DNA of 64,000 nucleotides from an uncultured Eubacteriales bacterium. Its GTDB lineage: Bacteria > Bacillota > Clostridia > Oscillospirales > CAG-382. The position numbers were made by a program, and so were the translations under genes. The notes under the pieces are model-generated. The model saw only the letters and a program-made list of their open reading frames with translations, searched no databases and had not been told where the DNA came from. Within the stretch, counting starts at the first letter, position 1; every line of letters begins with the position of its first letter. The stretch is taken from positions 151,318 through 215,317 of the forward strand of contig CAKSEL010000003.1 in the NCBI GenBank assembly GCA_934446675.1, read 5' to 3'. Shown in pieces: positions 24,164 through 61,819 of this stretch.

Positions 24164-25102
24164 ATGAAAGATATAAACAGTATAAACGCAAGAATTCTCG
24201 ACAGACTTTCGCTTTATCTCAATTTAATGCCGGACGCGGTGACAAAAGAGCAGCTTTTTGAGTTTGCGGGGCAAAACGCGTCGGAAGAACAGCTTGAATA
24301 TGCCTTCGGCTGTCTGCTTTCGTCGTACTGCGCGCTTGATACGGACGACGGCGCGGATATGCGCATTTTCCGCGATTGTTTTACAAAAATTCCGCGTCTG
24401 CTTGACGTTTCTGAGTATAAAAACGACAAATATTTCAAGCTCATCGAATTTCCCGAACATAAACGCGGCGCATGGGAGTTCAGAAAGCAGAAATTCAAGC
24501 CCTGCGAGGCTTTTCTGTATGACGAAACACGAGTCTGTCCCGACGGACTTCTCAAACCCTGTATAGGATTTTTCACGGAGGAGTTTGAGTACCCTGCCGT
24601 ACTCCAGAACGGCAGAGAATGGATAACCGTAACTCCGCACGAGATAAACACCACAAAGCCGGCGCTTGACGCCTGCTTCGGAAACGTGCTCACCTACGGC
24701 TTGGGATTCGGGTATTTCACTTTGCTTGCGTCTTTAAAGAAAAATGTAAACAGCGTTACGGTTGTCGAGCTTGACGCGGACGCGGTGAGCCTTTTTAAGG
24801 AGTATATTCTTCCGCAGTTTCCCGACAAGGACAAGGTGCGCATTGTAAATGAGGACGCGTTTGAGTTTGCGGCGGATAAAAACAAAAGCTCCGGCTTTGA
24901 TTTTGTGTTCGCGGATATATGGCACGATCCGTCCGACGGCGTGGGAATGTACGAAAAATTCAAAATTCTCGAAAACCGCGGTTCCGGTACGCGTTACTGC
25001 TATTGGATAGAAAAAACGCTGAAGTGGTATATTGCTCATAACACTCAAAATGATCTATCCTGCGCTCCCGGCGCAAATTTTGAGGTTTTTGGAACCCGAT
25101 AA
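24164..25102 (+). CDS. Spermine/spermidine-synthase-like class I methyltransferase-fold protein (function unknown)
   Basis: VLTYGLGFGYFTLLA (glycine-rich SAM-loop-like), VTVVELDADAV, FDFVFADIWHDPSDG. Confidence 0.55.
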   Translation: MKDINSINARILDRLSLYLNLMPDAVTKEQLFEFAGQNASEEQLEYAFGCLLSSYCALDTDDGADMRIFRDCFTKIPRLLDVSEYKNDKYFKLIEFPEHKRGAWEFRKQKFKPCEAFLYDETRVCPDGLLKPCIGFFTEEFEYPAVLQNGREWITVTPHEINTTKPALDACFGNVLTYGLGFGYFTLLASLKKNVNSVTVVELDADAVSLFKEYILPQFPDKDKVRIVNEDAFEFAADKNKSSGFDFVFADIWHDPSDGVGMYEKFKILENRGSGTRYCYWIEKTLKWYIAHNTQNDLSCAPGANFEVFGTR

Positions 25103-25199
25103 AACCTATCATTTATGTATGCTTTGTACAAAATCACATCGCTTAAAAGCCGATGTTTGTCCGCGTATGTACAAAATGCGAAAGTTTGCATAAATGCTA

Positions 25200-25228
25200 T
25201 TGACAAAAAGTGCATGGAGTGGTAAAAT
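25200..25228 (+). promoter_or_regulatory. SigmaA-type promoter of the metNIQ leader
   Basis: TTGACA (25200-25205), 17 nt, TAAAAT (25223-25228). Confidence 0.65.
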
Positions 25229-25283
25229 ACATAGCGTAATCAAGAAACGGCAGAACAAAAGCCGAAAACACGAGGTAACGGAC

Positions 25284-25388
25284 ATGACAGCAAGACGAAT
25301 GTGCGAAATGGATATGCATATGTACACAGCTATGTGTATGTACCTTGACGCGCAGAAAAATAAACGTCCCTTACCGAAAGAGGCATAA
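25284..25388 (+). CDS. Candidate Met/Cys-rich leader peptide (34 codons) of the metNIQ operon
   Basis: RBS GAGG 8 nt upstream of the ATG. The peptide is MTARRMCEMDMHMYTAMCMYLDAQKNKRPLPKEA, with 7 Met and 2 Cys in the first 19 codons. It lies between the promoter and an intrinsic terminator. Confidence 0.45.
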   Translation: MTARRMCEMDMHMYTAMCMYLDAQKNKRPLPKEA

Positions 25389-25415
25389 TCTTAGTTGCGG
25401 TAAACTGAAATTTTT

Positions 25416-25451
25416 GGGCAGGAGACGTATTCGCTTTCCTGTCCTTTTTTT
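25416..25451 (+). terminator. Leader (attenuator) terminator upstream of metN
   Basis: GGGCAGGA (25416-25423) / TCCTGTCC (25437-25444, one G-U pair) followed by T7. It ends 17 nt before the metN start. Confidence 0.7.
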
Positions 25452-25468
25452 ATGAGAGGAAGAGAGAC

Positions 25469-26464
25469 ATGATCGAGATAAAAAATCTTGACAAGGTGTT
25501 CAGTTCCGCGGGAGGACCGATAGAGGCGCTCAAAGACATTAATCTTACGATTAACGACGGAGAGATATTCGGTATAATCGGACTTTCGGGAGCCGGCAAG
25601 AGCACGCTTGTGCGATGTATCAACCTGCTTGAAAAACCTACAAGCGGCAGTGTGATACTCGACGGTAAGGATCTTGTGCAGATATCCAAAAAAGAGCTTC
25701 TCATGACGAGAAGAAACATAGGAATGATATTCCAGAGCTTCAATCTTCTTTCGCAGCGCAACGTGCTGAAAAACGTGCTTTATCCCATGGAGATAGCCGG
25801 GATAAAAAAAGCCGAGGCTGAAAAAAGAGCAAAAGAGCTTATCGAGATGGTAGGACTTACCGACAGAATCAAGTCTTATCCGGCACAGCTTTCGGGAGGT
25901 CAGAAGCAGAGAGTCGCAATAGCAAGAGCGCTTTCGACAAACCCGAAATATCTGCTGTGCGACGAGGCGACAAGCGCGCTTGACCCGAATACCGTGCGTT
26001 CGATACTTGCACTGTTGAAGGACATTAATAAGAAACTCGGCGTAACCATAATAGTTATAACGCACGAGATGAGAGTCGTCGAGCAGATATGCGACAGAGT
26101 TGCGGTAATAGACGGCGGACGCGTTGTTGAAACGGGCGAGGTCAAGCAGGTGTTCATATCGCCGAAGTCAAAAATGGCGCGCGAGCTTATCCTGCCGAAG
26201 AACGAGACTGTGGAGAGCATAAATTCCGAACGCGTAATAAGAATAGTGTTCGACGGACAGTCGGCGTTCGAGCCGGTAATCTCAAATATCATAACCGAAT
26301 GCAGATGCGCGGTAAATATTCTCGGCGCAGATACAAAAAATATAGACGGCAAGGCATACGGTCAGATGCTGCTTCAGCTTCCCGATGATGAGGCGTCGTC
26401 CGAGAGAGTTAAAAATTATCTCGGTTCGAGAAAAATACCGTTTGAGGAGGTAAGTTCAAAATGA
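25469..26464 (+). CDS. metN: Methionine ABC transporter ATP-binding protein
   Basis: Walker A GLSGAGKST, signature LSGGQKQRVAIARAL, Walker B LLCDEATSALD, and a C-terminal NIL-type domain. Confidence 0.9.
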   Translation: MIEIKNLDKVFSSAGGPIEALKDINLTINDGEIFGIIGLSGAGKSTLVRCINLLEKPTSGSVILDGKDLVQISKKELLMTRRNIGMIFQSFNLLSQRNVLKNVLYPMEIAGIKKAEAEKRAKELIEMVGLTDRIKSYPAQLSGGQKQRVAIARALSTNPKYLLCDEATSALDPNTVRSILALLKDINKKLGVTIIVITHEMRVVEQICDRVAVIDGGRVVETGEVKQVFISPKSKMARELILPKNETVESINSERVIRIVFDGQSAFEPVISNIITECRCAVNILGADTKNIDGKAYGQMLLQLPDDEASSERVKNYLGSRKIPFEEVSSK

Positions 26465-27150
26465 CAGAGTTTATACAGGGACTTTTCACAAGACTTTCTC
26501 CGGCAGACTATATGCAGGCAACCGCCACAACACTCAAAATTACGCTTATAAGCATGGTGCTTGCATACATAATCGGACTTCCTCTCGGCGTTCTGCTTTA
26601 CGGAACGGCAAAGGGCGCGATATTCCAGAACAAGTGGGTAAACACCGTTGTCGGAGTTGTAGTAAATATACTGCGTTCAATACCGTTTATCATACTTCTC
26701 GTAATGACGCAGCCGATAGCTAAAGTCGTAGTCGGCAGCAGAATAGGCGATAACGCGTTTATATTCTATCTTGTCATTGCGGCGGCTCCGTTTGTTGCGC
26801 GAATGGTGGAATCCTCGTTCAAAGAGGTTGACGCCGGCGTAATAGAGGCGGCGCAGTCAATGGGGTCAAATAATTTTCAGATCATCACAAAGGTCGTAAT
26901 ACCCGAATCAAAACCGTCGCTGCTTATAGGCGCGGCAATAGCAATAACTACGATACTCGGATATACGCCTATGACATACCTTATCGCGGGCGGAGGTCTC
27001 GGACAGCTTGCAATCCAGTACGGTCTGTACCGTTTCGAGACAAACGCAATGTACATTTCTTCCATCTTGCTTATTATTCTTGTCCAGATCATGCAGGAGC
27101 TTTTAAACTTCATTGCAAGAAAATGCGACAAGCGTATAAGAAATATATAA
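26461..27150 (+). CDS. metI: Methionine ABC transporter permease
   Basis: 229 aa, 5 TM segments. The start overlaps the metN stop (ATGA). EAAQSMGSNNFQIITKVVIPES is the EAA loop. Confidence 0.9.
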   Translation: MTEFIQGLFTRLSPADYMQATATTLKITLISMVLAYIIGLPLGVLLYGTAKGAIFQNKWVNTVVGVVVNILRSIPFIILLVMTQPIAKVVVGSRIGDNAFIFYLVIAAAPFVARMVESSFKEVDAGVIEAAQSMGSNNFQIITKVVIPESKPSLLIGAAIAITTILGYTPMTYLIAGGGLGQLAIQYGLYRFETNAMYISSILLIILVQIMQELLNFIARKCDKRIRNI

Positions 27151-27174
27151 TTTTTTCAAAAGGAGACTAAAACC

Positions 27175-28053
27175 ATGAAAAAGCTTCTCACAATCGCTCT
27201 CGCAGCACTTCTTTCGGTATCTGTATTTACCGGCTGCCAGAACAAGACCACAACAGACGACAAAAACAACGACAGCAATGTTCAGGACAATGTTAACGGT
27301 GCAGACAATTCCACCGATGACAAAAAGCTTGAGACCGTAACCGTTGCGGCAAGCAGCGCTCCTCATGCAGAGATCCTCGAACAGATTAAGGGTATACTTA
27401 AGGACGAGGGTTATGACCTCCAGATAAAGGTAATGGACGACTACGTAACTCCTAACACTGCTGTTGAAGGCGGAGACGTTGACGCTAACTACTTCCAGCA
27501 TCAGCCTTACCTCGATCAGTTCAATGACGAAAACGGCACTCATATAGTTTCCGTTGCAAAAGTTCACTATGAGCCTTTCGGAATCTATGCAGGCACTTCT
27601 TCAAGCCTTGACCTCGCAGACGGCGCAAAGGTTGCAGTTCCTAACGACGCTACCAACGAAGCACGCGCACTCCAGCTCCTCGCTGCAAACGGACTTATCA
27701 CCCTTAAGGACGGCGCAGGTCTTACCGCTACTACAAAGGATATAACCGAGAACCCCAAGAACCTCAATATCGTTGAAATGGAAGCAGCTCTTCTTCCCTC
27801 CGTTCTTTCCGAAGTTGACGTAGCTGTTATTAACGGTAACTACGCTATAAGCGCAGGTCTTAAGGTTTCCGAAGCTATCGCAACCGAAGATCCCGATTCC
27901 GAGGCTGCTCAGACCTTCGCTAATATCCTTGCCGTTAAGGAAGGTAATGAAAACGAAGATAAAATCGTTGCTCTTAAAAACGCTCTCCTCAGCGATACCG
28001 TTAAGAACTTCATCGCTGATAACTATGACGGCGCTGTTGTCGCTATATTCTAA
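27175..28053 (+). CDS. metQ: Methionine-binding lipoprotein (MetQ/NlpA family)
   Basis: Lipobox VFTGC. NlpA-family blocks YFQHQPYLDQFN, HYEPFGIY and AVPNDATNEARAL. Confidence 0.9.
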   Translation: MKKLLTIALAALLSVSVFTGCQNKTTTDDKNNDSNVQDNVNGADNSTDDKKLETVTVAASSAPHAEILEQIKGILKDEGYDLQIKVMDDYVTPNTAVEGGDVDANYFQHQPYLDQFNDENGTHIVSVAKVHYEPFGIYAGTSSSLDLADGAKVAVPNDATNEARALQLLAANGLITLKDGAGLTATTKDITENPKNLNIVEMEAALLPSVLSEVDVAVINGNYAISAGLKVSEAIATEDPDSEAAQTFANILAVKEGNENEDKIVALKNALLSDTVKNFIADNYDGAVVAIF

Positions 28054-28922: not shown

Positions 28923-28990
28923 CTGTATACCCGCGGTATTTTCTGTAAATACTAATTCCAAATCATGCATTGCCGAAAGGAAGTATTTAC

Positions 28991-31900
28991 ATGAGATCCA
29001 CGTCGGAAATCAAAACACTCGATGAAATTTTCGGGAATATAACTGCCGTAAAAATCTCATCGTGCAGAATTCTCGGAAGAAAACTCAAAGCCGCGTCGCG
29101 TGTATTAAAGAGCGAATTCGGTAAGGTAAAGCAGTTTTCAAAGCATGACGGTTCGCTGCCGTGCGCATATGAATGGCTTGCGGATAATTACTATGTGCTT
29201 GATAAAAACGTAAAAGAGCTTTCGGCGCAGATATCTCATTTTAAGAAAATTCCCGTGTCGGACTGCGGACTTCCCGTGTATTTTGAATTGCTTTCGGCAT
29301 ACTATGAAACTCTCGCGGACGGATTTTCCGATGAAAACTTTTCGGAGTTTGTGAAATTCGCCTGCCAAAATAAAAATGTTGCTCCCGATATGCGTGATAT
29401 GTATGCTTTTCCGGCGTTTGCAAAGTGCGCGGTTATATGCTTTGCTGCAAAAATGTGGCGTGAGTTCTCGGCTGATCCGGATAGTATAAATATGGCGCAT
29501 ATTATGGAAAACGCGGTGAAATCGCTGTCAAACCCGGAGATTTTCGATATGGAGGAGCTTTTTTCCTTTCACCCGGCACAAAAAATAATGTCCTGCGACC
29601 CGTCCGGAGCTTTTGATAAAATGAGCGAGGATACAAAGAAATATTATAGATTAAGACTTTGCGATCTGTCCCGAAAAAACGGACAAAGCGAACGTCAGAC
29701 AGCGTCGCGTATTCTCGATAAGGCAGCCGCGGCGGAAAATTTAAGAGAGCGTCACGTCGGCGCATATCTTGAGGATAATAAAAGCTTTGCCGTGCCGTAT
29801 TACGGCGCGCTTTTCTGCATTGTCGCGGCGGCACTGCTTGCGATGACGGCTTTTGTTTCGCCTGTTTGCCTGCTTCTTGCTTTGCCGGTGTGGGAAACCG
29901 TAAAATTTCTGCTTGACGTTGCTTTTTCGCGCTTTGTAAATCCCGAGCCTCTTTTCAGAATGGACATTTCGGAAATTCCGGACGGATTCGGCGCACTTAC
30001 CGTCATAACAACGCTGCTTTCGGGAAATAACGCGGATAAAAAAATATTTGAAAGACTTGAAAGCCTGTATTTTTCAAACGGCGGTAAAAACGCATATTTC
30101 GGACTTCTCGCCGACCTTCCCGACAGTAAAACGCAAAAGTCCGGAAATGATGAAAAGTTGCTTGATAACGCAAAAAAGCAGATCCAAAGACTTAATGAAA
30201 AATACGGCGGCGTTTTCTTTTTGTTTACAAGACAGCGCGCCTATTCAAAGTCCGAAAAGGCATATATTGCACCCGAACGCAAAAGGGGAGCCGTCTGCGC
30301 ACTTTCGGAATACCTCTGCGGCAAGGGCGATAAATTTGATGAGAACTCATTAAAGCCGTCAAAAGAGCTGTGTAAGAATATAAAATATGTCGTTACTCTC
30401 GACGCTGATACCGAAATGCCCGTCGGCGCACTTGAGCTGCTTTGCGGAGCAATGCTTCACCCGCTGAATAAGCCCGTGCTTAACAGTGACAAAACGGCAG
30501 TGGTAAAAGGACACGCAATAATCCAGCCTGCCGTAAGAACAACGGCGACCGACGCGTCGAAGAACCTTTTTACGTCGGTAATGTGCGGACCTGGAGGTCG
30601 TGAAAGCTACTCGAACTTTTCGGGCGAGCTTAATATGACGCTGTTTAAAAATTCGGGATTTTGCGGAAAGGGAATATTCGATAAAGAGGTGTTTTATGAG
30701 CTTACCCACGGCAAAAACGCCTTTAAAACAAACGCGGTGCTGAGCCATGACGCACCCGAAGGAGCAAGGCTGAACTGCGCTGCGGATACGGAAGCCGTGT
30801 TCACGGACGGATTCCCCAAAAACGAGCTTTCTTACTTCAAACGCGAGCACAGATGGATAAGAGGAGATTTTCAAAATCTCGGCTTTGCCGCAAAATACGT
30901 AAAAAACGCGTCGGGAGAGAAAGTTGAGAACGGGATTTCTGCGCTTTATAAGTACAGAATTTTCGATAATGTCAGACGTGAGCTTACTCCAGTCTTTGCG
31001 GTAATTGCCGTTGTATGCACGGTTTTCTGCGATGATTTCACAAGCGCGTTTCTCGGCGGAATAACGGCGCTGTATGTCTTTATGCCGTTTCTTGCCGACT
31101 TGATTTGTACGCTTGTTCATATAAAGAGCGGAGCAAAAGCCGCAGCAGCAAGGTTTTATTCTTTCGGCGTCGTGCCGTCGCTGTTTCAAAATTTGAGACG
31201 CTGCGCTCTTGATATGTCAATGCTTGCAAAATACGCTCTTGTCTGCCTTGACGCGTTTTTCAGAAGCTGTTACCGAATGTTTTTCTCGCATAAAAGGCTT
31301 CTCGAATGGACGACGGCGGCTCAGAGCGACGCGTCAAGCTCCGACGGAATAGGAGGATACGTCTTTAAAAATCTGTTTTCAAGCATAATAGGCGTTTTCG
31401 TGTTTGTATTTTCGGGCGACGGCTTTGCAAGGCTTTTCGGACTGTCGTGGTTTTTTCTTCCGGCTGTCGCGTATTTTTGCGCCGAGTGTAAAAATAACAC
31501 GCTTTCAGATAACGCGCCCGATAATGACGAGCTGAAAACCGTTAATGAGTACGCAAAAGATATATGGAGCTTTTTTGAAAACACGGTAACGGAGGAGGAA
31601 AATTATCTTCCGCCCGATAATATTCAGCTTTTTCCCGAAATGCGCACAGCTCACAGAACCTCGCCCACAAATATAGGACTGTATCTTGTATGCGCCGTGG
31701 TTGCGAGAAAATTCGGCTTTATAAATTCGCACGAGCTTTGCGCAAGACTTGAAAATTCGCTCTTTACTCTTGAAAAAATGCAGAAATTCAAGGGACATCT
31801 TTATAACTGGTACGATACAAAAACTCTCGGCGTTCTCGAACCCGTGTACGTTTCAAGCGTTGACAGCGGAAATTTTCTTGCGTGCCTTATAACGGCGTCA

Positions 31901-34900
31901 AACGGTGCGGCGGAATATAAAAACGAGTGCGCGGAGCTTGAAAGTATCTCCGAAAAACTGTATGCGCTGTATGAAAATACGGATCTTGAGGTAATTTACA
32001 ATAAAAAGCGCGGACTTTTCACTCTCGGACTGTCTTTTGAAAACGGACGGGCAAAGTCCGGAGATAACTGCTATGACCTGTATATGAGCGAGGCGAGAAC
32101 TCTCAGCTATATTGCCTGCGCAAAGCGCGGCGTGCCGCCTAAACACTGGAAAAGACTTTCGAGAATGCCCGTTAAGTTTTACGGACATACGGGACTTGTG
32201 TCGTGGTCTGGCACGGCGTTTGAATATTTTATGCCGGCGCTGTTTCTGCCGTATATGCCCTGTACTCTTGAATATGAAGCACTGCGGCTTGCATATGACG
32301 CGCAAAAGTCAAGAAGTGCCGAAACCGACTTCGGAAAGATATTCGGCATATCCGAAAGCGCATATTTTGCCTTTGATTCTCAGATGAACTATGCATACCG
32401 CGCCTTCGGCGTTCCGGTGCTGGGACTCGGACGCGGACTTGAAAAGGATCTTGTAATATCTCCGTACTCTTCGTTTCTTATGATGAGCGTGAATTTGAGC
32501 GGCAGCCTTAAAAACCTTGCCGTCATGAAAAAGTACGGCTTGTATGGCAGATACGGCTTTTATGAGGCGTGCGATTTTACACCCGGACGCGCCTCGGCAA
32601 AGGGCAGCATTGTTAAAAGCTATATGGCGCACCATATGGGAATGAGCTTTTGCGCATTGGCAAACGCGGCGTTTTGCGGCGAAGTACGCAGACTGTTTAC
32701 GGAGGATAAGGCTATGGAAAGCGCAAAAACCCTGCTTGACGAGAGAATACCCGTCGGAATTGAAGTAAAGAAGTATTCAGGTATATATGAAAAGACTGAT
32801 AAGCCGGACGCCGCGCCTATCTGCGTTCAGAGCCGTGTTTCAACCGGCGCAGATCCGGAAAATCCCGTGTTCGGCGCACTGTCCGACGGCAGAATTTCGG
32901 TTCTCGGCGCAGATAACGGATATGTGCGTATCTCGCTCGGCGGTAAAATGATAAACCTTGCCTCAAACGAAAAATACGGCATACAGAAAAGCGTTATGTG
33001 CTTTGCAAAGCTCGGAAATACGTTTTTAAGCTCTTGTCCCGGCATAAATGACAATAAAAATGAGAGCCGCAGTTTTGAGATAAGTCCGGAAAAGCTGTCA
33101 TATAACGTAAAGTCTGACGGAAAATATAATTTTACCTCGTCATTTACCGCCGAAAAAAACGTATCCGAAACCGTAAGAATTAAAATGACGCTTGAACGGG
33201 ATAAAAACGGAAATGACAGAGCAGAAAAGCCGAAGCGCGTAAAATTCGCACTGTATTTCGAGCCTGTTCTTGCAAGTATTCTGAACTACGAGTCGCACCC
33301 TGCATTTTCGGGGCTTTTCGTCGAAGCCGCGCTTGATGAAGAAACGGGAATACTGTGCTTTCGCAGACGTCCGAGAGAGGCTCACGAAAAGGAACTGTAT
33401 CTTGCCGCGGCGCCGTCAGACGGAGAAAAGTTTGATTTCGGCATAAATAAGATACGCATTTTCGGCTATCCCGTGACGGGTGAAAGCTTCAAGAAAATAT
33501 TTGATAAAAGACCCGATAACAGAGAGGGCGCGTGCATAGATCCTGCGTGCCTGATTGCCGCAGAGCGCGGTTTTGACGGACAAAACAACAAGGCGCAGTT
33601 TGAAATAATACTTTCCGTTTCCGACAGCCGCGAAAAGGCGATCTCGGGAATAACCGCCGCGAGAGAAAAAAGCTTTGAAAAGGCGTGTGCGGAGTTAAAA
33701 AAGACCTCCCTTGAACTGTATGCCGCGTCGGGTTATGCGCCGGACGGAGAAGTCGGAGAGTCCGAAGAAGAAAAAGAGCTTTGCGCGCTTGTTTATCCCG
33801 AAAAGAGCGAACCCGGCACCGAACTTGAGAAAAACGGCATGGACGCGCTGTGGAAATACGGAATATCGGGCGATTATCCGCTTATATGCGTATATGCAGA
33901 CAATCCGCTTGACGAGGATAAGGCGATAAGGTATGTAAAGGCGTTTGCTCTGCTTAAATATAAAGGCTTTTGCGCGGATCTTGCGCTTTTGTACCGCGAG
34001 CATGAAAAATACCGTGCAGACGGAGAAAATCTTGCCGACGATATAATTTCAAAAAGCGGCGTTTCGGGACTGATCGGCGCAAAAAACGGCGGAATATTCA
34101 AGGTTGACCTGTCTAAAAGCTCAGACGGCGGAGAAAAACTCATATTCCGCGCGGCGCTTGTGTATCCGCCTCTCGCAAAACCCGATGAGAGCGCGTTTTT
34201 TGCAGGAAATTATGATATTGTAACGGATATTCAGGGGAAGGAAAGCGCAACCGACGGGGAAATATTCTTTAATACTGCGGTCGGATATTTTGACAAAAAC
34301 TACGATTTTACCGTCGATAAGACAAGAAATATAACCCGTCCCATGTCGCACGTTCTGTCTGGACGGCACCTCTCGACGGTCGTCACCCACAATTCTCTCG
34401 GATATACTTTCTGTACAAACGCCGCCGAAAGGCGAATAACTCCCTTTTATAACGACGAATGTTCCTTTTCGACGGGAGAGCATATTTATATAAGCGACGG
34501 ACAAAAGCTCTATGACCTTGCCGCGGTTTCGCACAGCGTAAAGTACGGTACGGGATATGCAGAGTATACGGCGCGTATATGCGAAAAAGAGGTAAGACTT
34601 AAAGTATACGTTCCCGAAAAGCTGCCGATTAAAATTTATGAGGCTGACGTTCCGGACTCGCTTTCGGCAATGCTCTTGGTAAAGCCGGTAATGGCAAGAT
34701 TTGCCTTTTCAAACTCCGACTGTACGTTTAATATAGGCGCGGGCGCGGTAAGGTTCGGGAACAGCTTTTCGCAGAATTTCCCGTATACGGGATTTGCGTT
34801 CGGAGCAGGCTTTGACGAGTCGGGAAATGTGTCGGAGGGCGCGGTAAAAATATTCAGAAGCGGCAGATTTTCGGGCTGCGCCGCAGTCATGTTTGAAAAT

Positions 34901-36640
34901 AAGAATAACGGCGATGAAAGTACCGGAAACTCAAAATTTGTCTTTGCACTCGGCAGCGCAAAAAACGAGGACGTGATCTCGCACTGTACGTCCTGCGTGC
35001 GGAACGGACTTTATGAGCTTTACCGCAGCGCACTTGTGTTTTCAAATGGCGTTATGGCAAAGATCTCGCTTTCGGGGTACGATAAAAACGACGGCGCACG
35101 CGCAGTATCCGCAATGCTCTGCAAATGGCTGTCATATCAGAACGGAATATGCCGTATGTATTCGCGCAGCGGTTTTTATCAGTCGGGCGGAGCTTACGGC
35201 TACCGCGATCAGCTTCAGGACGCGGTCTGTCTTATGTATTCCGATAAAAATGCCGCGAGAACCCATATTTTAAGGTGCGCCGCACATCAGTTTGCAGAGG
35301 GAGACGTGCTGCACTGGTGGCATCCGGGAACGCAGAACGGCAATAAGAGCCACAGCGGCGTGAGGACGAGAATTTCGGACGATTATGTCTGGCTTGCGTA
35401 TGCGGTTTCGGAGTATGTGTCCTATACGGGAGATACCGGCGTGCTTGACGTGAAAGTGAGATATATAAAAGCGGACGGACTTTCTGACGGCGAACATGAA
35501 AAATATATAAGCCCCGAATATTCCGACGTAAAGGAAAGTCTTTACAGACATTGCCTGAAGTCGCTTTTCAGAGCGTACAGAATGAGAGGGCAGCACGGAC
35601 TCTGTCTTATCGGAACCGGAGACTGGAGCGACGGACTTAACCGCGTCGGAAAGGACGGAAAGGGCGAGAGCGTGTGGCTTACAATGTTCCTTGCAATGTG
35701 CATGGAAAAGTTTTCGCAGGTCTGCACGCGTTACGGCGATGATGTTACGAACCGCGCACTGTGCGAACGCGCAAAGGAGCTTTTTGATGTCTGCAAAGAG
35801 AGCGGATTTGATGACGAACACGGATATTTTATAAGAGCCTATGACGACGGCGGAGAAAAACTCGGATATTACGGCAATGACGAATGTAAGATAGATCTTC
35901 TTCCGCAGAGCTTTTCGGCAATAAGCGGGGGCTTTGACAAAGATACCGTTTCTTCAAGCCTGCTTTGCGCTTACAATATGCTGTGCGACACAAACGGAAA
36001 ACTGTTTAAGCTGCTCTCTCCGCCGTTTCACTATACAAAAAAGGATCCCGGATATATAAAAGGTTATGTTCCCGGAATACGCGAAAACGGAGGACAGTAT
36101 ACCCATGCCGCGGTCTGGGCAAGCATGGCGTTTCTGAAAGCGTCCGAAAACGGAGATACCGGTATTGCAAGCGAGAAAGAGCTGAGAAAGATAGGAATTG
36201 AAACGCTTATGTTTCTGCTCACTCCGCTGCGTATGGAGGATAAGGCGCTTTCGGAAAAATACGGCGCGGAGCCTTATGTTCTCGCGGGCGATATATACGC
36301 GAATAAGGATTATTACGGCAGAGCCGGCTGGAGCTGGTATACGGGCGCTGCAGGCTGGTTTTTCAGAGAACTTCTGACAAGGCTTTTCTGCATAAACTTA
36401 AAAGACGTGCTTGCCGAAAGTCCGAAGCTTGTGCTTTCGGACGGTGTGTTTACCCTGCCGTTTGAGTTTTCCGATGAGTTTTCGGTTAATCTTGCTGTAA
36501 ACAAAGACACAGACCTTACGGTAAATTATAAAAGGGGCGCAGAGAACGGAGTTTTTTCCGCAGACGAAAAATGCACCATGTGCGTAAGACTGAAACGCGG
36601 TGAGCAAAACGAAGTTACCGTAATATCAAAAGAACGGTAA
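28991..36640 (+). CDS. Cyclic beta-1,2-glucan synthase-like multidomain protein (GT84-type glycosyltransferase, TM segments, (alpha/alpha)6 glucan-processing region, GH94-type phosphorylase)
   Basis: The track ORF 28970-36640 is trimmed to the ATG at 28991 (RBS AAGGAAG). Motifs seen: VVTLDADTEMP (DxD), EHRWIRGDFQN, several hydrophobic segments, TSPTNIGLYL, GGAYGYRDQLQD and GDVLHWWHP. Confidence 0.8.
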   Translation: MRSTSEIKTLDEIFGNITAVKISSCRILGRKLKAASRVLKSEFGKVKQFSKHDGSLPCAYEWLADNYYVLDKNVKELSAQISHFKKIPVSDCGLPVYFELLSAYYETLADGFSDENFSEFVKFACQNKNVAPDMRDMYAFPAFAKCAVICFAAKMWREFSADPDSINMAHIMENAVKSLSNPEIFDMEELFSFHPAQKIMSCDPSGAFDKMSEDTKKYYRLRLCDLSRKNGQSERQTASRILDKAAAAENLRERHVGAYLEDNKSFAVPYYGALFCIVAAALLAMTAFVSPVCLLLALPVWETVKFLLDVAFSRFVNPEPLFRMDISEIPDGFGALTVITTLLSGNNADKKIFERLESLYFSNGGKNAYFGLLADLPDSKTQKSGNDEKLLDNAKKQIQRLNEKYGGVFFLFTRQRAYSKSEKAYIAPERKRGAVCALSEYLCGKGDKFDENSLKPSKELCKNIKYVVTLDADTEMPVGALELLCGAMLHPLNKPVLNSDKTAVVKGHAIIQPAVRTTATDASKNLFTSVMCGPGGRESYSNFSGELNMTLFKNSGFCGKGIFDKEVFYELTHGKNAFKTNAVLSHDAPEGARLNCAADTEAVFTDGFPKNELSYFKREHRWIRGDFQNLGFAAKYVKNASGEKVENGISALYKYRIFDNVRRELTPVFAVIAVVCTVFCDDFTSAFLGGITALYVFMPFLADLICTLVHIKSGAKAAAARFYSFGVVPSLFQNLRRCALDMSMLAKYALVCLDAFFRSCYRMFFSHKRLLEWTTAAQSDASSSDGIGGYVFKNLFSSIIGVFVFVFSGDGFARLFGLSWFFLPAVAYFCAECKNNTLSDNAPDNDELKTVNEYAKDIWSFFENTVTEEENYLPPDNIQLFPEMRTAHRTSPTNIGLYLVCAVVARKFGFINSHELCARLENSLFTLEKMQKFKGHLYNWYDTKTLGVLEPVYVSSVDSGNFLACLITASNGAAEYKNECAELESISEKLYALYENTDLEVIYNKKRGLFTLGLSFENGRAKSGDNCYDLYMSEARTLSYIACAKRGVPPKHWKRLSRMPVKFYGHTGLVSWSGTAFEYFMPALFLPYMPCTLEYEALRLAYDAQKSRSAETDFGKIFGISESAYFAFDSQMNYAYRAFGVPVLGLGRGLEKDLVISPYSSFLMMSVNLSGSLKNLAVMKKYGLYGRYGFYEACDFTPGRASAKGSIVKSYMAHHMGMSFCALANAAFCGEVRRLFTEDKAMESAKTLLDERIPVGIEVKKYSGIYEKTDKPDAAPICVQSRVSTGADPENPVFGALSDGRISVLGADNGYVRISLGGKMINLASNEKYGIQKSVMCFAKLGNTFLSSCPGINDNKNESRSFEISPEKLSYNVKSDGKYNFTSSFTAEKNVSETVRIKMTLERDKNGNDRAEKPKRVKFALYFEPVLASILNYESHPAFSGLFVEAALDEETGILCFRRRPREAHEKELYLAAAPSDGEKFDFGINKIRIFGYPVTGESFKKIFDKRPDNREGACIDPACLIAAERGFDGQNNKAQFEIILSVSDSREKAISGITAAREKSFEKACAELKKTSLELYAASGYAPDGEVGESEEEKELCALVYPEKSEPGTELEKNGMDALWKYGISGDYPLICVYADNPLDEDKAIRYVKAFALLKYKGFCADLALLYREHEKYRADGENLADDIISKSGVSGLIGAKNGGIFKVDLSKSSDGGEKLIFRAALVYPPLAKPDESAFFAGNYDIVTDIQGKESATDGEIFFNTAVGYFDKNYDFTVDKTRNITRPMSHVLSGRHLSTVVTHNSLGYTFCTNAAERRITPFYNDECSFSTGEHIYISDGQKLYDLAAVSHSVKYGTGYAEYTARICEKEVRLKVYVPEKLPIKIYEADVPDSLSAMLLVKPVMARFAFSNSDCTFNIGAGAVRFGNSFSQNFPYTGFAFGAGFDESGNVSEGAVKIFRSGRFSGCAAVMFENKNNGDESTGNSKFVFALGSAKNEDVISHCTSCVRNGLYELYRSALVFSNGVMAKISLSGYDKNDGARAVSAMLCKWLSYQNGICRMYSRSGFYQSGGAYGYRDQLQDAVCLMYSDKNAARTHILRCAAHQFAEGDVLHWWHPGTQNGNKSHSGVRTRISDDYVWLAYAVSEYVSYTGDTGVLDVKVRYIKADGLSDGEHEKYISPEYSDVKESLYRHCLKSLFRAYRMRGQHGLCLIGTGDWSDGLNRVGKDGKGESVWLTMFLAMCMEKFSQVCTRYGDDVTNRALCERAKELFDVCKESGFDDEHGYFIRAYDDGGEKLGYYGNDECKIDLLPQSFSAISGGFDKDTVSSSLLCAYNMLCDTNGKLFKLLSPPFHYTKKDPGYIKGYVPGIRENGGQYTHAAVWASMAFLKASENGDTGIASEKELRKIGIETLMFLLTPLRMEDKALSEKYGAEPYVLAGDIYANKDYYGRAGWSWYTGAAGWFFRELLTRLFCINLKDVLAESPKLVLSDGVFTLPFEFSDEFSVNLAVNKDTDLTVNYKRGAENGVFSADEKCTMCVRLKRGEQNEVTVISKER

Positions 36641-60547: not shown

Positions 60548-60576
60548 TTGACATAAAATGCAACCCGTAGTATAAT
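60548..60576 (+). promoter_or_regulatory. Consensus sigmaA promoter of the COG0523 pair
   Basis: TTGACA (60548-60553), 17 nt, TATAAT (60571-60576). No convincing Zur-type palindrome was recognised nearby. Confidence 0.6.
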
Positions 60577-60619
60577 GCTATTCAGGGAAATTATTTTTAT
60601 TAAACGGAGATGTTTAAAC

Positions 60620-61819
60620 ATGACTACCATTGATATTTTTTCCGGATTTCTCGGTGCCGGAAAGACTACGCTTATCAAAAAGCTCATTAAAGAAGGATAT
60701 AAAAACCAAAAGCTCGTGCTTATAGAAAACGAGTTCGGCGAAATAGGCATTGACGGCGGATTTTTAAAGGATTCCGGCGTGCAGATAAACGAAATGAATT
60801 CAGGCTGTATCTGCTGCAGCCTTGTCGGCGACTTTACAAAGGCGCTCAAACAGGTTATCGACGAATATAAGCCGGACAGAATTCTTATTGAGCCGTCGGG
60901 TGTAGGCAAGCTCAGCGACGTTATAAGAGCGGTTCGCGACGCGGGCGCTTCGGGTGCCGTTCTCGGTTCGTTCACCACGGTTGCCGACGTTACAAAGTGC
61001 AAGATGTATATTAAGAACTTCGGCGAGTTCTATAACGATCAGGTTGAAAATGCCTGCACGATTATTCTCAGCCGTACCGATAACGTTCCGCAGTATAAGA
61101 TCGACGCCGCAGTTGCGCTTCTTCGCGAGCATAACAAGGACGCCGTTATAATCACAACTCCCTGGGACGAGCTTTCCGGCGAGCAGATAGTTTCAGCCAT
61201 GGAAAACAGAAGCACACTCGAAAAAGAGCTTGAACGCCTTGAACACGAGGAGCATGAACATCATCACCATGATGAAGATGAGGACGAACATGAGCACCAT
61301 CACCACCACGATCATGATGACGATGATGACGATGACGAGTGCTGCTGCGGACATCACCACCATGACGGCGATGATGAGCATGAACACGAGCATGAACATC
61401 ATCATGACCACGACCACGATCACGAGTGCTGCCACCATGACCACGACGAAGATGAGGATGAACACGAACATCATCATCACGACCATGACCATGACGGAGA
61501 ATGCTGCCACGGACACCATCATCATCACCACGCTGACGAGGTGTTTACGAGCTGGGGCGTTGAAACAACGCATAAATTCACGCCCGAACAGATACTTGAC
61601 TGCTTAAAGGCTCTTGAGAATGATGACGAATACGGCACGATACTCAGAGCAAAGGGTATTGTCGAAAACGCAAACGGCGGCTGGATACACTACGATTATG
61701 TTCCGGGCTGTCCCGACGTAAGAAGCGGAAGCGCCGATATTACCGGAAGAATCTGCGTTATCGGCTCTAAGATTGACGAAAATAAGCTTGCCGCACTTTT
61801 CGGAGTCGCAGCAAAGTAA
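60620..61819 (+). CDS. COG0523 (CobW/YciC/ZigA-type) metallochaperone GTPase with very long His/Asp/Glu/Cys-rich insert
   Basis: The track ORF 60575-61819 is trimmed to the ATG at 60620. Walker A GFLGAGKTT, CxCC motif GCICCS, insert at about 61241-61536, and a CobW_C-like end (ILRAKGIVEN..GWIHYDYV). Confidence 0.85.
   Translation: MTTIDIFSGFLGAGKTTLIKKLIKEGYKNQKLVLIENEFGEIGIDGGFLKDSGVQINEMNSGCICCSLVGDFTKALKQVIDEYKPDRILIEPSGVGKLSDVIRAVRDAGASGAVLGSFTTVADVTKCKMYIKNFGEFYNDQVENACTIILSRTDNVPQYKIDAAVALLREHNKDAVIITTPWDELSGEQIVSAMENRSTLEKELERLEHEEHEHHHHDEDEDEHEHHHHHDHDDDDDDDECCCGHHHHDGDDEHEHEHEHHHDHDHDHECCHHDHDEDEDEHEHHHHDHDHDGECCHGHHHHHHADEVFTSWGVETTHKFTPEQILDCLKALENDDEYGTILRAKGIVENANGGWIHYDYVPGCPDVRSGSADITGRICVIGSKIDENKLAALFGVAAK

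Follow-up and report, generated by a model that had tools for sequence, protein, structure and literature searches.

We analysed the leader of the metNIQ operon in a 64,000-nucleotide stretch of DNA (64 kb; hereafter the window, meaning the whole stretch) from an uncultured Eubacteriales bacterium (contig CAKSEL010000003.1). The downstream operon, which encodes a methionine ATP-binding cassette (ABC) importer, lies on the forward strand at 25469..28053 and comprises metN (25469-26464), metI (26461-27150) and metQ (27175-28053). The best NCBIfam matches of the three products were MetN (371.7 bits), MetI (181 bits) and MetQ (164 bits), scores that are under the strict equivalog cut-offs, yet far above those of other families. 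The gene upstream of the leader encodes an unrelated methyltransferase-like protein. The leader itself holds a promoter, a short open reading frame (ORF) rich in Met and Cys codons and an intrinsic terminator, and we conclude that it is most probably a ribosome-mediated (leader-peptide) transcription attenuator that senses methionine and perhaps cysteine.

An earlier sequence-only reading of this DNA had proposed the promoter, the ORF and the terminator, and all three were recovered at the same positions. The promoter, of the sigma-70 type, is located on the forward strand at 25200..25228, with TTGACA at 25200-25205, a 17-nt spacer and TAAAAT at 25223-25228; it scored 11 of 12 against the consensus, carries an extended -10 TG at 25220-21 and would start transcription at about position 25235. 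A Shine-Dalgarno (SD) sequence, GAGG at 25272-75, is found 8 nt before the ATG at 25284, which opens an ORF of 34 codons plus TAA (25284..25388, forward strand) encoding MTARRMCEMDMHMYTAMCMYLDAQKNKRPLPKEA. The terminator (25416..25451, forward strand) is a 12-bp stem with one bulge, formed by 25416-25427 and 25432-25444 (-15.9 kcal/mol), with a UAUU loop and seven U (seven T at 25445-25451), and its T-run ends 17 nt before the metN ATG (25469). A simple terminator scan of the window missed this 25416-25451 hairpin, probably on account of the bulged stem. A 64-aa version of the ORF, starting from the in-frame ATG at 25194, is unlikely because that ATG precedes the -35 box.

Six AUG and two UGY codons are grouped in codons 6-19 of the ORF (25299..25340, forward strand), with Met at codons 6, 9, 11, 13, 17 and 19 and Cys at codons 7 and 18, as had been noted from the sequence; we propose this regulatory run as the zone of ribosome stalling. 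The statement that Met usage here is far above normal was borne out. The Met share in the long ORFs of the window is 1.8%, which gives a probability of about 9e-8 for six or more Met in 14 codons, and six in-frame internal ATGs appeared in just 3 of 100,000 base shuffles of the ORF. The ATGs within 25229-25451 are all in the frame of the leader ORF, and a comparable Met run was found in no other short ORF of the 64-kb window. The only other Met-rich stretches, at about 61250-61525, were considered as a second leader and rejected, as they arise when a His-rich gene is read out of frame or in antisense.

A scan for MetN in reference-genome and metagenome collections gave 160 loci, whose leaders were scored by the maximum count of Met plus Cys per 12-codon window of a short ORF within the 450 nt upstream of metN. 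The distribution of these scores was bimodal, with about 50 of the about 150 related metN loci at 5-10 and the rest, like the background, at 0-3. Seven leaders with a GTG start, missed by the regular-expression classification, were added by eye. The sorting of loci into T-box, S-box and leader classes by these expressions was rough, so that S-boxes were probably missed and one locus (L014) is probably a false positive. The loci with leaders, about 50 in number, belong to Oscillospiraceae, Agathobaculum and other Clostridia of gut and rumen and share the design of the window: promoter, SD, Met/Cys-rich short ORF and terminator. The peptides encoded in relatives include MKFAQTNNMMMAMMMYMPGCMCMSRRAQKYDSSCVRFQ, MAKVIRKMMMAEMCMCGMCMMMRAQKCGSPSFTAI, MTVSRMYMCMMRDFARFSARRLR (Agathobaculum hominis) and MKKLFTTAMMMPMCMRCMCMFSRTQKSARFVS.

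The elements around these short ORFs were conserved as well. Promoters as strong as that of the window were found in the same relative place in relatives, and an SD of the GGAG/GAGG/AGGA type was present in the 20 nt before the start in 26 of 28 family leaders, usually 6-10 nt upstream. Of 28 representatives, 27 have a hairpin followed by a T-run in the interval from the short ORF to metN; these terminators range from -14 to -40 kcal/mol and lie 11-87 nt past the stop of the short ORF. Gene finders call several of the family short ORFs in public assemblies, where the sole name given is 'hypothetical protein', and one leader-ORF variant occurs on at least 1000 contigs. For the 34-aa peptide of the window, an exact look-up in a large protein collection recorded no encoding contig, and the 64-aa extended version was also absent from that collection by exact look-up.

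The Rfam 15 search returned no match to any family across the whole window at the gathering score. With the threshold relaxed to E<=10, the region 25050-25520 still gave no match, so no class of S-adenosylmethionine (SAM) or S-adenosylhomocysteine (SAH) riboswitch and no T-box (RF00230) was detected, in agreement with the earlier observation that neither an S-box nor a T-box can be recognised in the leader; a match to a known riboswitch class would have spoken against attenuation by a translated ORF. The search of 18 related leaders was likewise without a match to any Rfam family. The negative result on the window is informative because the same search recovers, with scores of about 100 bits, the T-boxes that precede metN in the related loci L019 and L021.

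Other regulators occupy the position of the leader in part of the related loci. The metN slot is a T-box in 24 of them, 21 of these 24 with a GAA(C)AUGG specifier-like motif, and an S-box in a few. The nearest reference species (L001), an Oscillospiraceae metagenome-assembled genome with a MetN identity of 70%, has no Met leader before metN and a promoter only. This locus also carries a lysine riboswitch (L001:465-633, reverse strand, 102 bits), which is encoded on the strand opposite to metN at a distance of about 2 kb upstream. Taken together, L001 and about half of the related loci have no leader or have a Met T-box or S-box in its slot, which is replacement of the whole leader and not loss of Met codons. 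Loss of the ORF or of its Met codons in close homologs, an outcome that would have counted against regulation by these codons, was not seen among the recovered leaders: a metagenome contig of the same species (L081, 99% identity) keeps all Met and Cys codons, and the locus L146, whose MetN is 78% identical, has a Met/Cys leader of its own.

We then compared the codons of the leader ORFs within five groups of close relatives, including the window and L081, aligned codon for codon; the pairs L008/L083 and L010/L082 were excluded, being misaligned by in-frame shifts. Conservation of the Met run with drift elsewhere in the ORF, which the sequence-only reading had set as a test, was found: none of 32 Met codons was variable within these groups, versus 26 of 103 other codons (Fisher p=3.7e-4). 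The sole variable Cys codon changed synonymously, from TGC to TGT. Between L081 and the window the ORF differs at 4 codons, none of them Met or Cys. On these alignments, the Met and Cys codons are under purifying selection.

The possibility that the reading frame is due to chance, and that the region is a promoter followed by an untranslated leader and a partial terminator, is extremely improbable in the light of these results: the chance of such a frame in the window alone was calculated at about 1e-7 to 3e-5, about 50 independent loci of widely differing sequence have the design as well, and the Met codons are selected.

Outside the Met and Cys codons the peptides are much less constrained. 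Their N- and C-terminal parts vary freely and mostly non-synonymously, and their length ranges from 19 to 41 residues across the family. Invariant Met codons between freely varying peptide ends are the pattern expected of regulatory codons and not of a folded or bioactive peptide. The runs of the family contain 136 Met and 31 Cys, with any other residue found at most 9 times between Met codons. The true codon order of the run folds better than shuffled orders (mean z -1.0, Wilcoxon p=0.0014, over the family), and AUGUGCAUG is self-complementary. For these reasons the Cys codons may be hairpin builders, sensors, or both. A role for them as sensors, beyond the building of the hairpin, would be our inference.

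The run is followed by an A-rich unpaired spacer, GAAAAATAA, located after GCGCA at about 25350-25363 (core 25355..25363, forward strand). The corresponding stretch is conserved in many members of the family as GCNCARAA and is read as 'AQK' or 'AQN' in the peptide. By means of this spacer, the 3' part of the ORF would stay uncovered when a ribosome halts within the run; alternatively, the stretch might act through the nascent peptide or by pausing the polymerase.

This short 'AQK/AQN' motif, present after the run in many members, is one of the observations that could favour a functional Met/Cys-rich peptide (acting in metal or redox chemistry, as the precursor of a modified peptide, or as a transporter accessory), with the terminator setting the ratio of peptide to transporter mRNA. 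The short ORFs are called by gene finders, one variant being recorded from at least 1000 contigs, and peptide precursors too can be arranged as a small gene ahead of transporter genes with a leaky terminator in between. We nevertheless judge a functional peptide very unlikely, since the sequence outside the Met and Cys codons and the length of the product vary freely, and 'AQK' coincides with the A-rich RNA spacer beside a pairing segment. The downstream genes encode an importer with a binding protein, and no genes for modifying enzymes are adjacent. In relatives, the place of the leader can be taken by a Met T-box or an S-box, and the 3' part of the ORF shows specific pairing to the arm of the terminator, as described below.

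In the minimum-energy fold of the window leader, the region of the SD, GGUAACGGAC (25274-83), pairs with GUCCCUUACC (25366-75) over 9 bp, and this helix encloses a helix of 25300-05 with 25349-54 and a hairpin of the Met/Cys run formed by 25310-22 and 25331-44. The whole leader is more stable than its shuffles (z=-2.95). Three segments are distinguished, all on the forward strand. Segment 1 (A), GGTAACGGAC at 25274-83, together with the SD GAGG forms the element 25272..25283, which pairs with segment 2 and hides the SD. Segment 2 (B), ACGTCCCTTACCGAAAGAGGCAT at 25364..25386, is the 3' part of the ORF and is the partner of either segment 1 or segment 3. Segment 3 (C), GGGCAGGAGACGT at 25405..25428, consists of a T-rich run and the 5' arm of the terminator, and would form an antiterminator with segment 2 or the terminator with its 3' arm.

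The sequence-only reading had missed that the leader ORF's own SD region is what supplies the 5' partner in the competing structure. A hairpin that it had placed across the stop codon, CTTACCG..CGGTAAG, needs correction: the 3' partner is really CGGTAAA (25398-25404), which leaves 6 bp, and the hairpin is absent from the predicted folds. Its weak pairing of ACGTCCC with GGAGACGT fared better, being part of the fold predicted with a stalled ribosome (ACGUCCC/GGAGACGU), and the equivalent pairing is leader-specific in relatives.

In most relatives, despite their different sequences, the SD region likewise pairs with the 3' part of the ORF, for example GGAGCCGAA/UUCGGCUC, GGAGCGAACCG/CGGUUCGCC and AGAAAGUGUA/UACACUUUCU. 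RNAalifold, applied to a MAFFT alignment of 11 leaders, recovered from the Met/Cys run its central hairpin and nothing else; in that alignment the columns of the helix at the SD region are shifted. In a cross-pairing test, which needs no fitted alignment, duplex energies were computed for segments of 22 non-redundant leaders in every combination (22 x 22), segment C here being the 5' arm of the terminator with up to 25 nt upstream of it. Cognate A:B pairs (SD region with ORF 3' part) had an energy of -17.5 kcal/mol versus -13.8 kcal/mol for non-cognate pairs, and cognate B:C pairs -18.5 versus -14.7 kcal/mol (permutation p of about 5e-5 in both cases). The A:C control was unchanged, at -8.6 kcal/mol for cognate and -8.5 kcal/mol for non-cognate pairs (p 0.37). 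The B:C pairing of the window ranks 2nd of 22 in this test.

Some of these structural results would also be expected of an undescribed metabolite riboswitch for SAM, SAH or methionine, with an aptamer made up of the AUG-rich hairpin and the long-range helix and an ORF of only incidental nature. The leader folds well, with the z of -2.95 given above, the long-range helix covaries among relatives, the hairpin of the Met/Cys run is more stable than its codon-shuffled versions, and metNIQ operons in Firmicutes are usually controlled by riboswitches. However, Rfam is empty even at E<=10 and the relatives have no fixed sequence core. What is conserved is the SD, the ATG, the open frame, AUG and UGY codons that stay in frame but differ in number and order, and a stop codon that closely precedes the terminator. 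Every ATG of the leader is in one frame, the Cys codons change synonymously, the Met codons are invariant amid drifting neighbours, and the partner in the helix is the SD itself, which fits control of or by translation. We consider a riboswitch of this kind very improbable.

A further helix of the minimum-energy fold, a 12-bp long-range pairing of 25232-25245 with 25389-25402 (UAGCGUAAUCAAGA with UCUUAGUUGCGGUA), closes the whole leader ORF and competes with a small hairpin inside the predicted antiterminator. The 5' part of the same fold also contains a CGGC...GCCG hairpin upstream of the SD (25248..25264, forward strand), in which the copy of the same species, L081, differs in the loop only.

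The position of segment B in the ORF fits selection by the ribosome. The gap between the last regulatory codon and the start of B is 13 nt as the family median and 27 nt in the window, and B ends 1 nt before the stop codon in both cases; B would stay free of a ribosome that halts within the run, and would be covered by one at the stop. When the RNA with the full terminator was folded at equilibrium with a ribosome at different positions, the probability of the terminator in the window was 0.4-0.6 with the ribosome on the late Met codons versus 0.9 from codon 24 onward, and in L081 it was 0-0.1 versus 0.6-0.9. A clear position-dependent switch was seen in these folds for the window, L081, L008 and L082 only, and a faint one for L004, L009, L093, L083 and L025.

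The RNA was also folded after being cut before the 3' arm of the terminator, which is the state where the decision would fall. This folding and the cross-pairing test were adopted because the terminator is too stable in most relatives. With the ribosome on Met codon 11, 17 or 19 of the window, 25364-75 paired with 25416-28 through 10 pairs, enclosing a small hairpin at 25393-25408. The gain in engagement of the 5' arm was -7.5 kcal/mol on average with a stalled ribosome and -10.1 kcal/mol when a second ribosome was placed on the start site, and only -2.1 kcal/mol with the ribosome at the stop. In silico, the position of the ribosome selects between mutually exclusive pairings in the window and in L081.

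Several observations weigh against attenuation of this kind. The A:B helix of the window ranks just 9th of 22 in the cross-pairing test, and the antiterminator of the window is modest, being interrupted and containing many G-U and A-U pairs. In full equilibrium folds of most relatives, the terminator persists at any ribosome position; since their terminators are too stable in these folds, the switch would have to be kinetic. In several relatives the helix of the SD with B persists unless the SD is masked along with the stalled footprint, so that steric exclusion or a queued second ribosome must be assumed. Methionine starvation also limits charging of the initiator tRNA, which could counteract induction. 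Ribosome-dependent attenuation finally needs the ribosome to keep pace with the polymerase, and coupling is reportedly loose in Bacillus subtilis.

Translation of the ORF, stalling at AUG and UGY codons under starvation, and read-through as a consequence of stalling are the steps that we infer for the attenuator. Its segments would be the SD region (1), the 3' part of the ORF (2) and the two arms of the terminator (3 and 4), with the pairings 1:2, 2:3 and 3:4. A ribosome would load on the SD of the leader ORF while RNA polymerase is still in the leader. When Met-tRNA is plentiful, it would pass the six AUG and two UGY codons, reach the stop and cover segment 2 (25364-25386), so that the terminator would fold and transcription would end before metN. 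When Met-tRNA, or possibly Cys-tRNA, is scarce, the ribosome would stall in codons 6-19 and open the long hairpin that holds segment 2 to the SD region; the freed segment 2 would pair with the 5' arm of the terminator, and the polymerase would read into metNIQ. Without a ribosome, the SD region would pair with segment 2 and the terminator would form, giving a default state that is off. As segment 2 hides the SD, the ribosome must load before the polymerase makes segment 2, and this would tie the ribosome to the polymerase.

A narrower form of this attenuator would be a dual sensor of Met and Cys, in which AUG and UGY are both read, so that one attenuator would signal a lack of methionine and of cysteine alike to the methionine importer. 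It would also be gated in time: as the SD of the leader is hidden by the antiterminator strand, a part could be played only by a pioneer ribosome that loads during transcription of the leader. We put this forward as possible, but less likely than not.

The same leader could be imagined to work by TnaC-like arrest of the nascent chain in response to a free small molecule (methionine, SAM or homocysteine) and not to a shortage of charged tRNA. The conserved R/A-Q-K/N after the run and the length of the run, which is much longer than simple codon sensing requires, could be taken in its favour. Against this, the number and order of Met and Cys vary widely, the motif after the run is missing in several subgroups (e.g. 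L009, L015 and L003), and arrest at high methionine would, without an inverted logic, induce an importer at a time of no need. It has no direct support from the sequence data, and we hold it to be very unlikely.

Textbook control of methionine genes in Firmicutes is by S-box and T-box, and the leader-peptide attenuators known in Firmicutes include those of Lactococcus branched-chain genes and of antibiotic-resistance genes. A leader-peptide attenuator has also been predicted for Bacillus hisS paralogues. The trpL- or hisL-type attenuation that was first suggested from the Met run is now supported, as far as comparative sequence analysis goes, by the conservation of the family and by the leader-specific pairings. 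Like trpL, hisL, thrL, leuL, pheL and ilvL of Proteobacteria, the window has a short leader ORF in which codons for the regulated amino acid are clustered; it resembles the trpL type in the predicted 1:2, 2:3 and 3:4 pairings and the intrinsic terminator, and would do so too in the decision by ribosome position and in the termination that is the default when the leader is untranslated. It differs from that type in its use of Met codons (those of a single-codon amino acid that also serves initiation) mixed with Cys codons, in its host, a Firmicute of the class Clostridia, and in its target, which is an importer and not a biosynthetic operon. It also differs in that the leader ORF's own SD region serves as segment 1 and in that the regulatory codons lie in the loop or upper stem between segments 1 and 2, not inside segment 1. 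There is no sequence similarity between the window and trpL-type leaders.

The closest parallels by target come from more distant bacteria. In Streptomyces lividans TK24, a short ORF predicted directly upstream of metNIQ and named 'metL' contains a Cys/Met cluster (…GARCMCRRMCAF) with 3 Met and 3 Cys, and has been proposed as a methionine-dependent attenuator (PMC8079986). Unlike the window leader, it is actinobacterial and lies on a leaderless transcript, and its authors found no typical intrinsic terminator (PMC8079986). Only the short Cys/Met motif is shared between it and the family of the window (CMCRRMC versus MCMCM-type), in peptides that are short and of low complexity. In Campylobacter jejuni, a MetL with three Met codons was predicted upstream of metBA (PMC3847290), and CJsORF19 (MMYQMR), which precedes the gene for a methionine-transporter binding protein, showed translation initiation by ribosome profiling (bioRxiv 10.1101/2022.11.09.515450). 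Like the leader of the window, the C. jejuni short ORFs are enriched in Met and stand ahead of methionine genes, and short transcripts end just past their stop; unlike it, they are from Epsilonproteobacteria and have just 3 Met and no Cys. Mycobacterial polycysteine short ORFs are leaderless and reportedly attenuate downstream cysteine genes according to supply (bioRxiv 10.1101/834739), so that they share with the window a run of codons for a sulfur amino acid in an upstream short ORF; they are actinobacterial and use Cys only, whereas in the family of the window Met is dominant and the terminator is canonical.

The Met T-box and the S-box (SAM-I) share with the window the slot and the output, an intrinsic terminator before metN, and the T-box shares in addition the class of signal that we propose for the window, the charging of tRNA-Met. 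Their sensor is an RNA that binds tRNA or SAM, while the sensor of the window would be a translating ribosome. No description of a Met leader-peptide family in Clostridia or other Firmicutes was found in the literature searched, in which subscription journals were thinly covered, so that an earlier description is possible.

Several relatives have unusual arrangements at the leader position. One locus (L025) has two Met leaders in tandem, each with its own terminator, which together form a double attenuator before one metN; they extend from -336 to about -20 relative to metN (locus positions of about 2165-2480) and encode MNFAIENNMMRMCGARAEMLGLVAVR and then MNQLFTAVMMQMRTRGLFPTGGLP. In L091, the about 190 nt from the terminator of the leader to metN include an insert of about 150 nt that a close relative, L016, lacks; the insert consists of G/C-rich palindromic units (…GGGGGAGCTCCCGCGAAGCGGG…CCCCCAAAGGGGGAAGC…) and resembles a small repeat element that landed after the attenuator. 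In L036, tandem repeats of about 30 nt (AAAGCTTRGCAAAGCACAGTAAGGAATAGT) fill part of the about 240 nt between the terminator of the leader and metN, downstream of the Met/Cys short ORF and its terminator. In L071 and L002, a short ORF with an SD and a terminator is found at the leader position with no Met run; that of L071 encodes MKNYFESLVRANYRCGRMFPARTVCAGCFVVPFSSVQPH and that of L002 encodes …MRTNCQAITMRMQNPRAVLYGRFCCVSNH. Because Cys is kept and Met is lost, these two ORFs may be decayed or retargeted versions of the attenuator, to judge from their sequences.

Elsewhere in the window, a single ORF of 2556 aa (28970-36640, forward strand, given with a TTG start in the ORF list) stands directly after metQ. 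Its domains, which are a GH94 catalytic domain, a supersandwich domain and a glucoamylase-like domain, suggest a synthase or phosphorylase of the cyclic or linear beta-glucan type. A gene at 60575-61819 (forward strand) encodes a GTPase of the CobW/G3E family, probably a metal chaperone, with a long insert rich in His, Asp, Glu and Cys (HEHHHHDEDEDEHEHHHH…CCCGHHHH). The CAT/CAC repeats of this gene give rise to Met-rich pseudo-ORFs in other frames and on the opposite strand (61193-61607), which can be mistaken for Met leaders.

The mechanism that we propose belongs to the class of classical leader-peptide attenuators; what is new is a conserved and unannotated family of Met/Cys-codon leaders in gut and rumen Clostridia, whose short ORFs are unnamed or called 'hypothetical protein' on thousands of public contigs and for which there is no Rfam model. 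In the large group of Clostridia that carry it, the Oscillospiraceae, Agathobaculum and their relatives, the family would represent a third type of sensor for methionine genes, one based on the ribosome. As leader, T-box and S-box fill the same slot, the sensors are evidently swappable with the terminator output kept. Met is a rare regulatory codon, and earlier Met leader peptides are few, being the predictions in Streptomyces and Campylobacter; methionine is special in that the same amino acid serves initiation. Because attenuation needs a ribosome close behind the polymerase, the family offers a handle on the coupling of transcription and translation in Clostridia. If the dual and gated form of the sensor were true, it would be the first class of Met-sensing leader-peptide attenuators in Firmicutes, widespread in Oscillospiraceae of the human gut, and would provide a natural read-out of how tight this coupling is in Clostridia.

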